Shown: one piece after another, positions 11,681 through 57,992 of the stretch | Position numbering within the stretch: position 1 is the first letter of the stretch | Layout: every line of letters begins with the position of its first letter | Assembly (NCBI GenBank): GCA_016234725.1 | Contig: JACRAK010000005.1 | Location: 1 to 62,901, forward strand | Source of the DNA: Candidatus Azambacteria bacterium | GTDB taxonomy: Bacteria > Patescibacteriota > Minisyncoccia > GWC2-36-17 > WO2-46-25 | Direction: 5' to 3' | DNA: 62,901 bases | Program-made: the position numbers and the translations under genes | The notes under the pieces: model-generated | The model's input: only the letters and a program-made list of their open reading frames with translations | What the model was told of the DNA's origin: nothing | The model's database searches: none

Positions 11681-11790
11681 AAGCCAGTATCCTCAATTCT
11701 TTCTTTAATCCTCTCACGCCCTTTATTTAAAATAATAATGAAGGGCTGCGCTTCCGTTAAGATAAAAGAAAGAATTGAGGATACTGGCTT
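11681..11790. repeat. Conserved-core long hairpin element, copy A
   Basis: 23 bp perfect stem aagccagtatcctcaattctttc / gaaagaattgaggatactggctt. It encloses a 64 nt core with inner hairpin GCCCTT..AAGGGC and CCGTTAAGAT. Confidence 0.75.
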
Positions 11791-31656: not shown

Positions 31657-31766
31657 CGCTTCCCCCGTTCAATTCTTTCTTTTATCTTAACGGAAGTGCA
31701 GCTCTTCAATAATCCCTATATACAAGAGCGTGAACGGATTAAAGAAAGAATTGAACGAGGGAAGCG
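31657..31766. repeat. Conserved-core long hairpin element, copy B (core inverted relative to A and C)
   Basis: Stem cgcttcccccgttcaattctttc / gaaagaattgaacgagggaagcg (1 mismatch). The core reads atcttaacggaagtgcagctcttc...gagcgtgaacggattaaa. Inner hairpin GCTCTT/AAGAGC covaries with GCCCTT/AAGGGC of the other copies. Confidence 0.75.
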
Positions 31767-51250: not shown

Positions 51251-51333
51251 GACCCGTTGGCACATATTTCAATAAAATGGTCAAAAATCCACTATTTTAC
51301 AATGTTTTCAAGCTTTATAATGCGTCATCCATT

Positions 51334-51370
51334 ATAAAAAAAACAGCTCTTTCGTTATGAAAAAGCTGTT
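51334..51370 (-). terminator. Rho-independent terminator ending the small-ORF array
   Basis: Minus strand AACAGCTTTTT-cataacg-AAAGAGCTGTT followed by TTTTTTTAT. Confidence 0.6.
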
Positions 51371-51380
51371 TCGGTGAGGA

Positions 51381-51542
51381 TTATTCATATCTTCCTCCTT
51401 TTTTGGCTTCGCGGAGAAGCCGTTTGTTGTCGGCGCGCTTGTACCCCTTATCACCCTTGGTGGTGCTCTGCGCGCCGCCGCCATGATGGCGGAGCTTCTG
51501 ATATATGCTCTCGGGAATTCGCAGCCAGATCTTTTTCTTCAT
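51381..51542 (-). CDS. Small basic protein (53 aa), not in the supplied ORF track
   Basis: MKKKIWLRIPESIYQKLRHHGGGAQSTTKGDKGYKRADNKRLLREAKKGGRYE. SD AAGGAG 8 nt upstream. The start overlaps the upstream stop (TAATG). Confidence 0.45.
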   Translation of the reverse strand: MKKKIWLRIPESIYQKLRHHGGGAQSTTKGDKGYKRADNKRLLREAKKGGRYE

Positions 51543-51736
51543 TATTCTCTCTCCTTTTCTGATAATGTTATCTGAACTTTATGTACAACTCCATTTATTT
51601 CCAGCTCTTTCTCCTCCTGATTAAACGAAATTGAACTTACTTCTATTCCGGACATTTCAAATACTGCACTAAAATACTCTATCTGAACATCAGCGTATTT
51701 ATTTTCACCTTTTTTAAAGAAAACTGCTTTCTTCAT
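51542..51736 (-). CDS. Small hypothetical protein (64 aa)
   Basis: Strong SD AAAGGAGG 4 nt upstream of the ATG. Confidence 0.55.
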   Translation of the reverse strand: MKKAVFFKKGENKYADVQIEYFSAVFEMSGIEVSSISFNQEEKELEINGVVHKVQITLSEKERE

Positions 51737-51773
51737 GGAACCTCCTTTGATTAAAGGTTGTTTTGCTGTGAAT

Positions 51774-51813
51774 CCCCGCCTTAATTTTCACTCATGTAAA
51801 AACTAAGGCGGGG
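51774..51813. repeat. ATCCCC...GGGGAT hairpin family, copy f
   Basis: aatCCCCGCCTTA-N20-TAAGGCGGGGag. Adjacent second hairpin GAGATAAGTG-tttt-CACTTATCTC. Confidence 0.6.
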
Positions 51814-51859
51814 AGATAAGTGTTTTCACTTATCTCTGCGTTGGAAGGATGTGGGAAAG

Positions 51860-52282
51860 TTAATCTATAACGACTTGGGCATATTTTGCGCCCGAGTGCC
51901 GTTTCCCGATCAGGCGGCCAATCGTACTTTCAAGTTCGCCGGCCACGAGCTGGTGACGTCCATCTTTGAGCGCTCGTGATATCTTTATCAGGTCGCCGAT
52001 CAAGAAAGAAAGTTCATCTCGAGAAAAAGCGTGATCCACTCCGGCTCTAAACGCTTGCTCTATGATGTGCCTGATAGCGCCGGCGAAAGAATCATCGCCA
52101 TCACCAACGTCCATTAAAGCGCGAAGCGCCTTCATGCTTATTTCTGAAACAAAATGGTCGTCCTCTTCTGCAAATTCTAAGACCGCGACGCACGGCAGAT
52201 CATGGTTGTCGTCAGCGGCAACCCTTACAAAAAAATCCAGATTTCCTTCGTGATCCTCAGACCTTTCGATCGCAAACTTCAT
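51860..52282 (-). CDS. Hypothetical acidic protein (140 aa)
   Basis: SD AAGGAGG 5 nt upstream of the ATG at 52282. The ORF-track N-terminal extension is rejected. Confidence 0.6.
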   Translation of the reverse strand: MKFAIERSEDHEGNLDFFVRVAADDNHDLPCVAVLEFAEEDDHFVSEISMKALRALMDVGDGDDSFAGAIRHIIEQAFRAGVDHAFSRDELSFLIGDLIKISRALKDGRHQLVAGELESTIGRLIGKRHSGAKYAQVVID

Positions 52283-52330
52283 CGCTTCCTCCTTTTTTTT
52301 ATGCCTATTATTAGGCGGTATTTTCAACAT

Positions 52331-52372
52331 CCCCTTCAAAATCCTGAAATCTCTTTCAGCGCTTTGAAGGGG
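52331..52372. repeat. ATCCCC...GGGGAT hairpin family, copy a
   Basis: catCCCCTTCAAA-N22-TTTGAAGGGGag. Followed by the locus-specific hairpin GAGTGATTTG..CAAATCACTC. Confidence 0.65.
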
Positions 52373-52457
52373 AGTGATTTGTTTTTTACAAATCACTCTG
52401 TTAAAAAACTTCACTTGCTGACACGAATTTAAAAAACAAATTCGTGTCAGCAATAAA

Positions 52458-52904
52458 TCAACTCGCGGTTGCTATTTCCACGACCGCAAATCGACTATTA
52501 GGCGCTATTTTAAATAGGCCTTTTGCAAACCGATCCGCCTCCTGAAAAGAGGCGAATGCCGGATTGCATTTGCGCTCAGAGCACCACGAGACATCGATCC
52601 TTAGTCTGTAGGGATAAAATTCCCCGGACCAAGTGATCTTCTCGGGATGGAACCCAAGCACGACATAAATCTTCTCCGGCGGATTTTCACCCGCTAACTT
52701 CACCCCGCAGAAGTAATCATCAAGACCGCCATTGCGCCAGCCTTGTTTCCATGCCTCATATGTCAGGAATGCTTTTTTGAGCAATCTGCCGTATGAAGCG
52801 ATCAAACTCTTTTCCCTATCCTCCGTCAAAGGCCATTGGCCCACTCTAGGAAAAGTCATCCCATCCCATGATGCGCTTCTACCTATATATAAATCGATTG
52901 CCAT
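52458..52904 (-). CDS. Hypothetical protein (148 aa)
   Basis: SD GGAGGA 4 nt upstream of the ATG. A 16 bp terminator-like hairpin follows the stop (52407-52451). Confidence 0.6.
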   Translation of the reverse strand: MAIDLYIGRSASWDGMTFPRVGQWPLTEDREKSLIASYGRLLKKAFLTYEAWKQGWRNGGLDDYFCGVKLAGENPPEKIYVVLGFHPEKITWSGEFYPYRLRIDVSWCSERKCNPAFASFQEADRFAKGLFKIAPNSRFAVVEIATAS

Positions 52905-52985
52905 ATGATCCTCCGCAAAACCTGCCTGTCCGCCGTGGCGGATTCAGGACTTATAGCTTTCAATATCCCCACTTTATTTTTATCC

Positions 52986-53024
52986 CCTTCACAATCCACC
53001 AGCATCGCTGATGCATTCTGAAGG
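52986..53024. repeat. ATCCCC...GGGGAT hairpin family, copy b (degenerate)
   Basis: tatccCCTTCACAAT-N19-ATTCTGAAGGag. Confidence 0.5.
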
Positions 53025-53120
53025 AGCAGCGATATGTTTATCGCTCCTTTTGATGAGGGGGCTCTGCTTCCCCGCGGCTCCCCATTTGATCTGGCTCAAA
53101 CGGGGACAAAAGCGAGACCC

Positions 53121-53438
53121 TTAGGAGGCCTTTAATGGCCTATCCCGGCCTTCGGGGGTGCGTGAAGCGCAAGTCGGCTTGTCCTTTCGGACGTTTGCTC
53201 GGGCAAATGCCGTGATGAACGGCTTGTATTTGCCCAGCGCCGCGTTGCGCTGCTCCGCCTCTTTCAGAGACGCTTCCAGCCCGTAAAACGGGATGAACTT
53301 CTTCTGGGAGCGCGCCTCTTTCGAGAGGTTATAGCGGCACGTGCCGCATACCGGCTTCACCGCCCATTTGCCGTTTTCCCGTTTCAAGGGAAGGGCAAAC
53401 TTTGGGCTGGTGCTGGGGCACAGTGTGCATGTATGCAT
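53121..53438 (-). CDS. Zinc-ribbon-like small protein (105 aa, CxxC...CxxC)
   Basis: MHTCTLCPST...KPVCGTCRYN. SD AGGAGG 6 nt upstream of the ATG. Confidence 0.6.
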   Translation of the reverse strand: MHTCTLCPSTSPKFALPLKRENGKWAVKPVCGTCRYNLSKEARSQKKFIPFYGLEASLKEAEQRNAALGKYKPFITAFARANVRKDKPTCASRTPEGRDRPLKAS

Positions 53439-53494
53439 GGGAAACCTCCTATGCTATATGGAGCCGTCATTGGCTCAATTCTTCTTTGATACAT

Positions 53495-53535
53495 CCCCTT
53501 CAGAAAACTCAATGCACTTGAATCCTCTGAAGGGG
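53495..53535. repeat. ATCCCC...GGGGAT hairpin family, copy c
   Basis: catCCCCTTCAGA-N21-TCTGAAGGGGag. Adjacent hairpin GGAGACAAC..GTTGTCTCC (53534-53559). Confidence 0.65.
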
Positions 53536-53558
53536 AGACAACGGTTATTTGTTGTCTC

Positions 53559-53789
53559 CTATATGAACCGCCCTGAATTTTTCGAGGGACGGATTAATCG
53601 CGAGAAGATGGTGTGGGCATCATGCATGAGCATGATGTTTCTTATCACCACACCGAATGACATGGAAAACGCTTTCCATGTCACCCATTTCAGACAGGAC
53701 TCGACTTGAGCTAAATTGCTCAAGTCGCATTTGTCTTTGAGATGTCTTTGGCATCCCATACCCTTCCTTGCCTTAGCCTTATGTGGCAA
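53559..53789 (-). CDS. Possible small ORF (66-76 aa) with weak start signals
   Basis: It occupies the slot between hairpins d and c. It has only a TTG start, or an internal ATG with marginal SD spacing. Confidence 0.25.
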   Translation of the reverse strand: MPHKAKARKGMGCQRHLKDKCDLSNLAQVESCLKWVTWKAFSMSFGVVIRNIMLMHDAHTIFSRLIRPSKNSGRFI

Positions 53790-53865
53790 GGATTTTTACC
53801 CCCAGCACATCGACTGGAGCGCGGGTCCGCGCTGTGCTGCACATAGGGTGTTGCGATTGGTGCAT

Positions 53866-53907
53866 CCCCTTCAGAACCCGCTTTATTTCAAGTGGATTCT
53901 GAAGGAG
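53866..53907. repeat. ATCCCC...GGGGAT hairpin family, copy d
   Basis: catCCCCTTCAGAA-N20-TTCTGAAGGaG. Confidence 0.65.
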
Positions 53908-54021
53908 ACGCATGAAGATAGATGCGTTGCGCATCTCCTCATACGCCTATGCTTTTACACGGAGGGTCTTCACCGAAACTTGGGTGCCTTGGCCCAAGAT
54001 TGACGCACCGCGGTTAGCGGC

Positions 54022-54087
54022 TTACCTGCAACAAGGGCAGGTGCCTGCATGTCCGCAGGCGGTGCAGCTGATGCCGCACTTAACCAT
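54022..54087 (-). CDS. 21 aa cysteine-rich peptide (6 Cys, 1 His), not in the supplied ORF track
   Basis: AAAGGAGG-tcact-ATG GTT AAG TGC GGC ATC AGC TGC ACC GCC TGC GGA CAT GCA GGC ACC TGC CCT TGT TGC AGG TAA, which translates to MVKCGISCTACGHAGTCPCCR. Confidence 0.45.
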   Translation of the reverse strand: MVKCGISCTACGHAGTCPCCR

Positions 54088-54116
54088 AGTGACCTCCTTT
54101 TTAGAATTTTATTTTT

Positions 54117-54170
54117 ATATCCCCTTTAATGCCCGCAAACCGCTTCGCTTACGATCATTAAAGGGGATAT
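54117..54170. repeat. ATCCCC...GGGGAT hairpin family, copy e
   Basis: ATATCCCCTTTAAT-N26-ATTAAAGGGGATAT (14 bp perfect). Confidence 0.65.
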
Positions 54171-54341
54171 GAAGTTGTCAAAGGTCAGGACTCGGATCTC
54201 GCCCTTCAGAGAGAGCGTGTGAGTGATTCTGCTGATTGCGGTTCGGCGTAAAGCCGTACAATATGTTGTTTATCCGCTCAGACAGATTATATGCTTCACA
54301 CACCCTCCCTTTCCGGCTTAAATCTTCATCGTGTAGCCGAC

Positions 54342-54370
54342 AGTATATCAAAATAAACAAAGCTTGTCAA
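54342..54370 (-). promoter_or_regulatory. Consensus-like sigma70 promoter with perfect palindromic operator, heading the small-ORF array
   Basis: Minus strand TTGACA-N17-TATACT. Plus strand 54365-54382 is TGTCAA-gaccta-TTGACA. Confidence 0.6.
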
Positions 54371-54523
54371 GACCTATTGACACATTTCTTCGTTGAAATG
54401 TCAAAAACGCAGTATTTAAGCCATTTTTTTGCCTGTTTTTATATTCCGATTTTGTTTATATTTGCTGGCAATATAAAAAACGCCGTTTCCACGGCGTTTT
54501 TTATATTATTACTTACGCAATCT

Positions 54524-57090: not shown

Positions 57091-57282
57091 CGTTATTACT
57101 ATTTAATTAATTCTTCCCGTCTTCTTTATAATATATAATGGATGACAGGGCTCTCTGTAGTATAAAGCATTTTTTGGCGGAGCGATACACGCGCACTATC
57201 CACATGCGCGGGAGAATATACATGCTCTGGAATTTTATCCGCAAATCAGGTATAACATATGTGCATTGCAGTAAAAGTTTAG

Positions 57283-57356
57283 GCGAGTGTCGTATAGTGG
57301 CAATACCCCAGTTTTCCAAACTGGTGCCGGGAGTTCGATTCTCCCCACTCGCTCCA
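57283..57356 (+). tRNA. tRNA-Gly (anticodon TCC), CCA encoded
   Basis: Acceptor GCGAGTG/CACTCGC, anticodon loop TTTCCAA, T-arm GGGAGTTCGATTCTCCC, then T-CCA. Confidence 0.85.
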
Positions 57357-57400
57357 ATAAACACAAAGAGCCCTTCTGGGGTACTTTGTGTTTATACAGA

Positions 57401-57540
57401 GGGGAATCGAAGGGTATTCCAAAAATATGAACTGCTTCATATTTTTGGAAACCCGGACTCTGAAGGAGAAGCGACGCTTGTCATGAGCTTGTCGAAGGAC
57501 GCGGAGCTTCGGATGAAGAGGATTCTCCCCACTCGCTCCA
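57401..57540 (+). repeat. tRNA-linked structured element, copy 3 (cognate to tRNA-Gly)
   Basis: GGGGAATCGAAGGGTAT, where AATCGAA is the reverse complement of the T-loop TTCGATT. Perfect hairpin ttccaaaaatatgaa-CTGC-ttcatatttttggaa. 20 nt perfect direct repeat gattctccccactcgctcca at 57337-57356 and 57521-57540. Confidence 0.75.
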
Positions 57541-57551
57541 AGACCAAACCC

Positions 57552-57992
57552 ATGCCGCGACGTCTGAAAATCATAGCGATACTTTTTTGTATAGTGAGTT
57601 CGATCGGCTTGCTGGACGCGGCGTACCTCACTATCAAACATTACCGCGGAGGCGTGCCGCCGTGCACGATCCATGGGTGCGAGGTCGTGCTCACCAGCGC
57701 GCAAAGCGAGATTGCGGGTGTTCCTGTCGCACTGCTGGGCGCATTGTATTACGCGGCGATCTTTCTATTATCTCTTGCGTATGTGATCAGTAAAAAAGAA
57801 AAGGTTCTTCGGCATGCGGCATATATTACGCCTGCTGGATTCATCGCTTCCGCCTATTTCGTATATCTTCAGCTTTTTGTCATCAACGCGATATGCCTGT
57901 ACTGCATGGCCTCGGCAACCACGTCAACGATGCTATTTATGCTTGGCATGTATGTTATTATAAAAACACGGCGTACCTCGATAGTGCAGTAA
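57552..57992 (+). CDS. Vitamin K epoxide reductase (VKOR) family protein
   Basis: Four TM helices, loop cysteines PPCTIHGC, active-site CxxC (CLYC). Start trimmed to the ATG at 57552, downstream of the tRNA and its element. Confidence 0.75.
   Translation: MPRRLKIIAILFCIVSSIGLLDAAYLTIKHYRGGVPPCTIHGCEVVLTSAQSEIAGVPVALLGALYYAAIFLLSLAYVISKKEKVLRHAAYITPAGFIASAYFVYLQLFVINAICLYCMASATTSTMLFMLGMYVIIKTRRTSIVQ

Follow-up and report, generated by a model that had tools for sequence, protein, structure and literature searches.

Repetitive extragenic palindromic (REP) sequences, the bacterial interspersed mosaic elements (BIMEs) that they build, and miniature inverted-repeat transposable elements (MITEs) processed by ribonuclease III (RNase III), such as the Correia elements (nemis) of Neisseria, are palindromes between genes; transcribed along with operons, they stabilise the mRNA or serve as sites of its processing. 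REP/BIME and Correia elements are dispersed genome-wide in hundreds of copies, often in association with a REP-associated tyrosine transposase (RAYT) or another transposase. In lambdoid phages, conserved boundary ("linker") sequences have been proposed to mediate the exchange of modules. The polycistronic early mRNA of phage T7 contains five processing signals for RNase III among genes 0.3-1.3, where single-strand cuts leave stabilising 3' hairpins; an idealised RNase III substrate measures 22 bp, whereas cellular substrates mostly have helices of less than about 20 bp (PMC3867540). In plastids, short intercistronic expression elements, as outlined in PMC2230500, promote the processing of transcripts into stable, translatable units. 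Here we compare these systems with an array of hairpins in a 62,901-nt stretch of DNA (hereafter the window; contig JACRAK010000005.1) from a Candidatus Azambacteria bacterium, in which six main hairpins (B hairpins), numbered h1 to h6 from the promoter, punctuate a ~3-kb segment of small open reading frames (ORFs). All array coordinates are given on the minus strand.

With G·U pairs allowed, the B hairpins of the window have stems of 19-21 bp and loops of 4-6 nt, and all six end in GGGGA. Their 5' arms on the transcribed strand read UCCCC, UCUCC or CUCC. An earlier model-made annotation of the window, the sequence-only reading, had listed six hairpins sharing ATCCCC and GGGGAT with loops of 19-26 nt. 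The six hairpins are real, but ATCCCC is the plus-strand view of the 3' arm, and the long loops disappear once wobble pairs are counted. The first hairpin, h1 (54167-54120; 21 bp, 6-nt loop), lies in the 5' leader of the transcript behind a conserved UUGACAA sequence (54181-54175). It is followed by h2 (53908-53865; 19 bp), h3 (53536-53494; 19 bp, 5-nt loop), h4 (53026-52984), h5 (52373-52330) and h6 (51814-51773; 19 bp, 4-nt loop), of which h4 and h5 contain one or two internal mismatches. The B hairpins sit 32-79 nt 5' of the next start codon, and every one is followed by A-rich sequence, not a U-tract, and then by the next Shine-Dalgarno (SD) sequence. Use of the ATG within GGGGAUG as a start codon was considered and dropped, since three of the six hairpins lack it.

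The element is confined to the array. The motif AAGGGGAT has five minus-strand copies, all within 52336-54126, and none elsewhere on the minus strand of the 62.9 kb, and a two-arm hairpin pattern had no match in 100 shuffles. We also built a covariance model, R1, from a seed drawn mostly from other loci and containing none of h1, h4 and h5. On the minus strand of the window R1 recovered exactly h1 to h6, at 20, 45.9, 54.6, 26.7, 31.4 and 55.4 bits, respectively. The sole extra match in the window was a weak AT-rich hairpin at 1268-1301, where both strands matched, and no strong match beyond the arrays was found in the 62.9-kb window or in the flanks of three related loci (L043, L054 and L056).

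Related loci (L043-L059, L075 and L076) were contigs fetched through homologues of three array genes, ORF3, ORF4 and ORF7. We found arrays of B hairpins in L043, L046, L050-L057, L059 and L075, with 2 to 11 copies each, always on the coding strand and always intercistronic; the search of related metagenomes that the sequence-only reading had proposed thus returned coding-strand arrays in all the related array loci found. Stems measured 18-21 bp across loci, with loops of 3-6 nt in nearly all copies. In most lineages B takes the form 5'-UCUCUCU-N12-loop-N12'-AGAGGGA-3', followed by AAAAAUAAAA and an SD sequence; in the window and its closest relatives a variant with more G, UCCCC...GGGGA, takes its place.

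To evaluate base pairing, we aligned 31 distinct B hairpins and scored them on a 19-bp helix. Standard pairs filled 96.4% of cells, against 72.9% in shuffles and 46-63% when the partner was slid by 1-3 columns, a percentage that is inflated by construction because the copies were partly chosen by a pairing-based finder. Measures of compensatory change and strand asymmetry are less affected by this selection. Pairs changed on both sides numbered 13 of 19 (mean of 11.1 in shuffles), and compensatory cells numbered 124 against 35 expected, bearing out an earlier claim that the inner stems covary. Three wobbles predominate in the alignment: U·G at 8-48 (23 of 31 copies), G·U at 17-39 (20 of 31) and U·G at 22-34 (19 of 31). 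The base of the helix is conserved across lineages (5'-UCUCUC/UCCCC...GAGGGA/GGGGA-3'), and the middle of the stem varies freely. Moreover, the sense-strand fold was stabler than that of the complement in 42 of 42 distinct copies, with a mean fold energy of -23.1 versus -14.9 kcal/mol and a mean G·U count of 2.5 versus 0.26 (Wilcoxon p = 1.6e-8). Because the coding-strand fold is always the stabler one, this pattern indicates an RNA structure and not a duplex palindrome or a bottom-strand attC site. As judged by sequence comparison, the B hairpins are a structure read in the transcript; in principle, coding-strand single-stranded DNA could yield the same asymmetry.

Rfam at its gathering threshold reported only tRNAs in the window and nothing in five related loci, and permissive scans of the window and related loci returned only sub-threshold chance matches. 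Together, these comparisons give good support to the B hairpins as a previously uncatalogued family of RNA elements that is array-confined and lineage-specific. The family counts more than 40 distinct copies, covaries strongly, is strand-specific and is tied to one conserved operon in a rare uncultured lineage. We call the lineage rare because ORF4 has ten homologues and its family makes up six clusters among 1.84 billion representatives. The same organism was found in one Logan run only (L041 and L042; 99.9% identical).

Five of the six window B hairpins are directly preceded by a second, variable hairpin, which we term A; h1 is the exception. A is a GC-rich stem that abuts B, sharing 0-3 nt with it or ending at most 3 nt away, and the A-B pair forms a connector. 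In the window these are A2 (53948-53906) with B2 (h2) in connector 2 (53948-53865), A3 (53559-53534) with B3 (h3) in connector 3 (53559-53494), A4 (53048-53025) with B4 (h4) in connector 4, A5 (52398-52372) with B5 (h5) in connector 5 (52398-52330), and A6 (51836-51813) with B6 (h6) in connector 6 (51836-51773). The stem sequences of A differ widely (GGAGAAAGAAA..., GGCGAG..., GGCAAGAAA..., GCGAGGCAC...). Orthologues of connector 4 are conserved in L057 and L059, L043 keeps only a 3' arm at connector 5, and connector 6 stands behind different ORFs in L043, L057 and L059. A second, locus-specific hairpin placed right after the preceding stop codon had been noticed before; its presence holds at five of the six positions, but it abuts B and does not directly follow the stop codon. 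We found A at every internal B hairpin in the window, L043, L046, L053, L054 and L056, and at none of five leader (h1-type) hairpins.

The hairpins lie within what looks like one polycistronic unit of ~3 kb, running from a sigma-70 promoter to an intrinsic terminator. A promoter scan placed the promoter at 54370-54342 (TTGACA-17-TATACT, -35 at 54370-54365 and -10 at 54347-54342, 11 of 12 consensus positions), with its -35 element forming the right half of a perfect operator-like palindrome, TGTCAA-N6-TTGACA (54382-54365). A terminator scan found an intrinsic terminator at 51372-51340, so that both ends of the segment agree with those proposed from the letters alone. We read the segment as a single transcription unit because none of the B hairpins has a U-tail and because no internal promoter was predicted in a scan of the array except a weak TTGACA/AATGAT match over h1.

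The array-bearing loci share this design. A conserved promoter, its -35 overlapped by TGTyaA-N6-TTGACA, is followed by a first hairpin of distinct type with UUGACAA or UUAACAA as its 5' flank, then by a Cys-rich peptide of 21-24 aa, and then by a row of small ORFs and non-coding slots with a B hairpin ahead of each. Equivalents of h1, of the form TTGACAA/TTAACAA-N4-CCCTCAC...GTGAGGG, were found in L046, L050, L054 and L056.

We put the probability at roughly 0.45 that the connectors serve to process and stabilise the transcript between cistrons, in the manner of the RNase III sites of T7. This reading is suggested by their intercistronic position, a helix of about two turns, the missing terminator tail, the A-rich tract and free SD sequence downstream, and the presence of A wherever there is an upstream message. 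B, with its two helical turns, would be cut by a double-strand-specific endonuclease of the RNase III type, and the cut would release the long transcript as separate units. A would remain at the 3' end of the upstream unit and protect it, and a short A-rich leader with a free SD sequence would open the downstream unit. In the 5' leader, where h1 lies, there is no message upstream that would need protection, and h1 lacks an A partner. In a variant of this scheme, a cut of the RNase E/Y type in the A-rich tract would leave A and B together as a double 3' cap. RNase III itself, the default candidate for the cleaving enzyme, is a less probable proposition than the processing role as such. Among the alternatives voiced by the sequence-only reading, an RNA-processing-punctuated operon fits best, given that all 42 copies fold better on the coding strand, that G·U pairs are conserved, that the hairpins are intercistronic and that the arrays recur in relatives.

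As with the T7 signals, hairpins of about two turns are repeated between the small cistrons of one transcript from a strong promoter. The 18-21-bp stems agree with the roughly 20-22 bp of RNase III sites, as does their location between cistrons of one unit, and cleavage would likewise leave a 3' hairpin stabilising the upstream message. Unlike the T7 early region, the array is chromosomal, lies beside an ATP synthase operon and has no phage DNA match. Its hairpins are nearly fully paired with conserved wobbles, whereas T7 sites have an asymmetric internal loop, and it has a dedicated upstream hairpin A and a helix-base sequence conserved across lineages. Plastid intercistronic elements are likewise short RNA elements between cistrons at which an operon transcript is processed, as proposed for the array; they differ in using sites for proteins of the pentatricopeptide repeat (PPR) type and no 19-21-bp hairpin, and are evolutionarily unrelated. 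The closest functional counterparts are the RNase III signals of phage early operons and stabilisers of the REP type; the element of the array differs from both in combining two hairpins, in being confined to a single operon and in serving as a recombination seam.

Several observations weigh against the processing reading. The B hairpins have no conserved internal loop of the T7 R1.1 type, A is weak or absent in the AT-rich lineage of L050, L051 and L055, and the likeness of hairpins within a genome goes far beyond the needs of RNase III specificity. This likeness points to gene conversion or to a sequence-specific partner. If the processing model were true, the array would offer a clear natural case in which hairpins punctuate an operon of the chromosome, one hairpin serving for cleavage and the other protecting the 3' end. 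Such a case would help to explain how genes of one operon come to be expressed at different levels, and could supply a small building block for engineered operons.

A sequence-specific partner could be encoded in the array itself, and B would then be the site of a sequence- or structure-specific RNA-binding protein or nuclease, with ORF3, ORF4 and ORF7 as candidates, that coordinates translation, packaging or processing of each unit, much as Cas6 acts on CRISPR repeats or phage coat proteins on their operators. We regard this as unlikely, though it accounts for a good deal. The helix base (UCUCUC...GAGGGA), the three wobble positions and the stem length are kept across lineages, hairpins are alike within a genome and different between genomes as would be expected for a co-evolving cognate protein, and the ORF3, ORF4 and ORF7 families are found with the hairpins in virtually every array but hardly anywhere else. 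However, gene conversion among neighbouring repeats equally explains the within-genome likeness, the middle of the stem is free to vary, and no array protein matches a known RNA-binding or nuclease fold.

The connectors also coincide with sites of gene turnover, where the array differs between relatives in content and order. In the window, L053 and L054, ORF3 comes before ORF4; the order is the reverse in L046, L051 and L055. In L057 and L059, a receiver-like 143-aa ORF and a 106-aa ORF come after ORF3 and connector h4, between the same connectors that enclose ORF4-h5-ORF5 in the window. L043 has the 143- and 106-aa pair and then ORF4' and ORF5' between two near-identical h6-type connectors, of which L057 and L059 have a single copy. 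In alignments of h6-type connectors, homology sets in at the stop codon of the upstream ORF, whatever that ORF is, and stops at GGGGAUG, and these are the homology breakpoints among the window, L043, L057 and L059. The hairpin ahead of ORF3 is of the h3 type in the window and of the h6 type in L057 and L059.

Leaders behave in the same manner. One leader, AUAArUCCUGAAyCG...CGGCAGGyrGGUUU...GGAGG, which includes the small hairpin UCCUGAAyCG...CGGCAGG, stands before three unrelated ORFs: ORF4 in the window (52983-52905) and L043 (731-790), ORF3' in L058 (1700-1768) and an 88-aa ORF in L075 (550-622). In the window this leader forms the small hairpin UCCUGAAUCC...GGACAGG, followed by the SD sequence. 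As unrelated ORFs follow one leader in different genomes, ORFs are swapped inside a regulatory frame that is itself conserved. Connectors are better conserved than genes, with 86-90% identity for h6 across relatives versus 73% for ORF4-ORF5 DNA. Array proteins also diverge faster than housekeeping genes, as seen between the window and L043, where ORF4 is 61% identical and AtpA falls within the same 90% cluster. Finally, hairpins are homogenised within each genome, with three TTGCAG stems in L054, four near-identical copies in L056 and three TTCAGA stems in the window.

The simplest account of this pattern would be that homologous recombination and gene conversion at shared connectors and leaders reshuffle the modules and homogenise the hairpins; connectors and leaders are the apparent recombination seams because they are the only sequences common to the modules. 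Some ORF swaps, for example at the ORF6 slot, join at the start codon and not at a hairpin, which counts against the hairpins as the seams. The description of the segment as cassette-array-like stands in so far as modules are gained, lost, swapped and reordered at hairpin and leader seams, as the proposed check for ORF turnover between relatives made visible; it falls short in that the arrays keep a conserved core gene set. What makes the seams of interest is that modules reassort at conserved non-coding sequences with no recognisable recombinase among the neighbours scanned.

A more specific alternative holds that the connectors are DNA recombination sites, acting as coding-strand single-stranded DNA hairpins for an unlinked recombinase, in an integron-like logic made of unrelated parts. 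Modules are inserted, deleted or replaced exactly at connectors when L043, L057 and L059 are compared with the window, the order of ORF3 and ORF4 is inverted between lineages, and array genes diverge faster than the neighbouring AtpA (61% versus at least 90% identity). Like an integron array, the locus has one promoter and co-directional, promoterless small ORFs, each with an imperfect palindrome, and content and order change between relatives with breakpoints at the palindromes. Yet ordinary homologous recombination or gene conversion at connectors gives the same pattern, and junctions such as those at start codons miss the hairpins. Unlike integrons, the array has no R''/R' core sites (RYYYAAC/GTTRRRY) and no conserved extrahelical bases, the B helix being 19 contiguous pairs with no conserved bulge. 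In 51301-54420 we found one RYYYAAC and one GTTRRRY, on opposite strands, and no pair 45-150 nt apart. The wobbles favour the mRNA-sense strand, opposite to the bottom-strand usage of attC, and hairpins are homogenised per genome instead of being cassette-specific. A Pfam scan of about 30 window ORFs, including all neighbours within about 10 kb, detected no recombinase or integrase, and no recombinase was found among the neighbours scanned in the related loci. Finally, array loci share core genes, leaders and operator, and a conserved core set argues for a vertically inherited operon. We consider recombination sites of this kind quite improbable. An integron-like array, as the sequence-only reading had first proposed, fails on core sites, on the folding strand and on an integrase among the neighbours scanned, and in its gene content swapped and reordered modules stand beside a conserved core; its own remarks that an integrase and attC cores were missing proved correct for the ORFs scanned and for 51301-54420.

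The seams invite a broader interpretation, in which A-B connectors and leaders together constitute a dedicated gene-shuffling platform that places unrelated small ORFs in a fixed, TrmB-controlled frame, with structure-specific recombination at coding-strand hairpins that double as RNA processing signals. We think this very unlikely. In lambdoid phages, too, short conserved non-coding boundaries coincide with mosaic junctions, and unrelated ORFs stand behind the same leader here; the array differs from lambdoid linkers in having no phage context and in that its boundaries are structured RNA elements with covariation.

The phage-like (PeSL-type) array that had also been suggested found no backing in database searches. 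A blastn search with the 3-kb segment matched none of 50,697 phage and none of 72,556 plasmid records, and no ORF4 relatives were found in IMG/VR viral contigs. A pattern scan of viral contigs gave 15 single chance matches, with no array and no R1 match. When 185,579 species genomes were scanned with the exact two-arm pattern, 40 solitary hairpins came up in unrelated taxa, many of them palindromic on both strands, and R1 found no array in those 40 unrelated genomes, scoring at most 30 bits at one site per locus. Such single matches, like those in the viral contigs, do not exceed chance level.

We also regard it as very unlikely that the hairpins are selfish or neutral palindromic repeats, similar to REP, Correia or MITE sequences, that spread locally by duplication and gene conversion and affect mRNA at most incidentally. 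Such an origin would suit the near-identical copies seen within genomes (h6 twice in L043, a TTGCAG stem three times in L054, four copies in L056) and the decay of one L043 copy to its 3' arm. Unlike REP/BIME and MITEs, however, the element is restricted to one operon per genome and not dispersed, and it keeps a constant orientation, stem length and position between the previous stop codon and the next SD sequence. Hairpins are also more conserved than the adjoining coding DNA, and their wobbles and compensatory changes persist across lineages in which ORF4 is only 42-60% identical. Least credible of all, the hairpins might be terminators or attenuators giving graded read-through along the operon, as stable GC-based stems between genes and a separate perfect 16-bp hairpin 3' of ORF4 (52453-52415) could suggest, but none of the six B hairpins has a U-tract, A-rich sequence follows instead, and the terminator scan flags no B on the coding strand, yet flags 51372-51340 and 50907-50874.

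All ORFs listed by the sequence-only reading (21, 66-76, 105, 148, 140, 64 and 53 aa) are present, but the 66-76-aa slot is probably non-coding. An all-against-all comparison of array ORFs defined core families: ORF4 in every locus (as follows from how the search was designed), ORF7 in eight, the zinc-ribbon protein ORF3 in seven, TrmB in five and ORF5 in three, together with the Cys-peptides. By this comparison, the arrays are a conserved core set (Cys-peptide, ORF3, ORF4, ORF7 and TrmB) and not a random cassette pool.

ORF1 (54022-54087) encodes a 21-aa peptide with six Cys residues and a strong SD sequence, directly after h1; a homologue occupies the same position in L056, and L046, L054 and L058 have analogous Cys-peptides. 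ORF3 (53438-53121) encodes the 105-aa zinc-ribbon protein, so that both protein types singled out earlier, one zinc ribbon and one six-Cys peptide, are indeed encoded. ORF4 (52904-52458) encodes 148 aa in a module that spans 52983-52458 with its leader and SD sequence. It is followed by ORF5 (52282-51860; 140 aa), with homologues in L043 and L054, and by ORF6 (51736-51542; 64 aa), a lineage-specific replacement whose stop overlaps the start codon of ORF7 (51542-51381), a basic 53-aa protein of a core family. In L043, L057 and L059 the ORF6 slot holds unrelated ORFs of 33 to 71 aa behind a conserved SD leader.

Array proteins from the window and relatives gave only marginal matches in Pfam, PHROGs and PADLOC, none of them credible: an M54-like peptidase, zinc-ribbon domains and a receiver-like domain in L054, with E-values of 0.009-0.08 in PHROGs and a single one of 0.015 in PADLOC. 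ORF5 had no match in Pfam, PHROG, PADLOC or PDB, and PDB sequence searches with ORF4, ORF5 and ORF7 returned nothing, in agreement with the earlier verdict that these proteins are unrecognisable. Structure prediction with AlphaFold2, which had been proposed as a check, was run for ORF3 and ORF4. The ORF3 model was mediocre (predicted local distance difference test, pLDDT, of 67) and the ORF4 model confident (pLDDT of 87.6), and Foldseek found no fold match in PDB for either. The only distant match to an ORF4 profile was the 1158-aa protein P0024, six repeats of which match ORF4 residues 57-107 (E = 6.7e-7); this hints that the core of ORF4 may be a repeatable domain. The locus thus combines core small proteins, one with a confident fold and no PDB match, and structured non-coding slots under one conserved operator, beside ATP synthase.

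The slot that follows h2 (slot 2; 53862-53541) is a GC-rich run of six to seven near-perfect hairpins closed by a long-range helix, with fold z-scores of -6.9 in sense and -7.7 in antisense. Neither Pfam nor PHROG gave a match for its 66-76-aa ORF, and nothing in the related arrays, whether ORF or DNA, matches the slot. Rather than a protein gene, the slot is probably a non-coding structured RNA or else a remnant. A conserved element also occupies the 3' untranslated region after ORF3 (53118-53055), with the form GGGTCTCGCTTTTGTCCCCGTTTGA...AAGCAGAGCCCC, and is kept after ORF3 in L057 (783-855) and L059 (372-445). It folds as a nested helix, GGGyCTCGCTTTTGTCCCCGTTTGA...TCAAATGGGGAG...AAGCAGAGCCCC, and recurs at other positions in L058 (1523-1600) and L075 (30-100). 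By this recurrence, the nested helix is a second conserved RNA element of the arrays.

The related arrays contain a further slot of ~480 nt that is absent from the window. This non-coding slot is conserved between two lineages (L046, 5713-6222; L053, 433-924), with indels between blocks of identity. Compensatory changes affect 16 of its 72 predicted pairs, and an exact 16-mer, GGGCTCACGACCCATC, is found also in L056, at 8967 and 9865. We consider the slot a candidate for a large non-coding RNA within arrays.

A second copy of the operator and promoter lies at 51262-51223 (TGCCAA-N6-TTGACA-16-TATAAT, 12 of 12 consensus positions), upstream of the leader of a TrmB-like gene, as had been spotted earlier, and a 61-nt direct repeat, D1, links the two promoter/operator copies with 70% identity. 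The motif TGTyaA-N6-TTGACA overlaps the -35 element at nine promoters in seven loci (the window, L043, L046, L050, L054, L056 and L058), namely both window promoters and the array or TrmB promoters of relatives, so the idea of a shared operator holds. A TrmB gene adjoins the array in six loci (the window, L043, L046, L054, L056 and L075), and the TrmB-like protein is the only regulator syntenic with arrays. The array and the TrmB-like gene are probably co-repressed through this operator, with the TrmB-like protein as the obvious candidate repressor, and the second promoter would drive the TrmB leader, the TrmB-like gene and the ATP synthase operon. We dropped the idea that the B hairpins are themselves operators for the TrmB-like protein, as their strand asymmetry argues for RNA.

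The TrmB leader (51215-50874, minus strand) contains two SD-preceded mini-ORFs of four codons, MNSW* (51104-51090) and MGTW* (50994-50980), both of which end in Trp-stop, and an intrinsic terminator (50907-50874) just 5' of the gene. The pair of mini-ORFs is conserved as MNSW* and MESW* in L043 and as MNAW* and MNTW* in L075. This arrangement looks like a peptide-dependent attenuator for TrmB and perhaps for the ATP synthase operon. In L046 and L054, ~900 nt between TrmB and the array are conserved at 69% identity. A leader-like RNA on the reverse strand of L046 (4200-3850), divergent from the array, comprises a promoter, GGAGGTGTCCC-GTG and AAGGAGG-ATG mini-ORFs and a terminator, and resembles the TrmB leader of the window.

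The array is flanked by ordinary chromosomal genes. Downstream are the TrmB-family regulator (50780-50070, minus strand) and then an F-type ATP synthase operon; the rest of the window has complex I/Mrp-like, type IV pilus, glycogen synthase, tRNA synthetase, VKOR and HU genes, and nine tRNAs are scattered elsewhere in it. GC content per kilobase is 0.41-0.46 over 50-53 kb versus about 0.52 elsewhere, so the array had rightly been called AT-richer than its surroundings except for the kilobase at 53-54 kb, which is at 0.52. Upstream of the array lies a 746-aa, secreted-looking protein (56764-54524, minus strand) with about ten Cys repeats of the form GGPGGC...C..YC...EC and a Kazal domain. It adjoins a protein of the VKOR (disulfide-forming) family (57138-57992, plus strand), and neither is present in the arrays of other loci. 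Two long palindromes at 11690-11781 and 31659-31764, of ~92-106 nt with stems of 21-28 bp, share the core TTCAATTCTTTCTTT and represent a separate repeat, ~20 kb apart and unrelated to the array hairpins. Lastly, the ATP synthase genes (49951-36654, minus strand) are apparently split. The a, c, b, delta, alpha and gamma subunit genes occupy 49951-45509 and the beta subunit gene 38021-36654, with ~7 kb of complex I/Mrp-like genes (44944-38049) between gamma and beta, where L043 has one 254-aa ORF.

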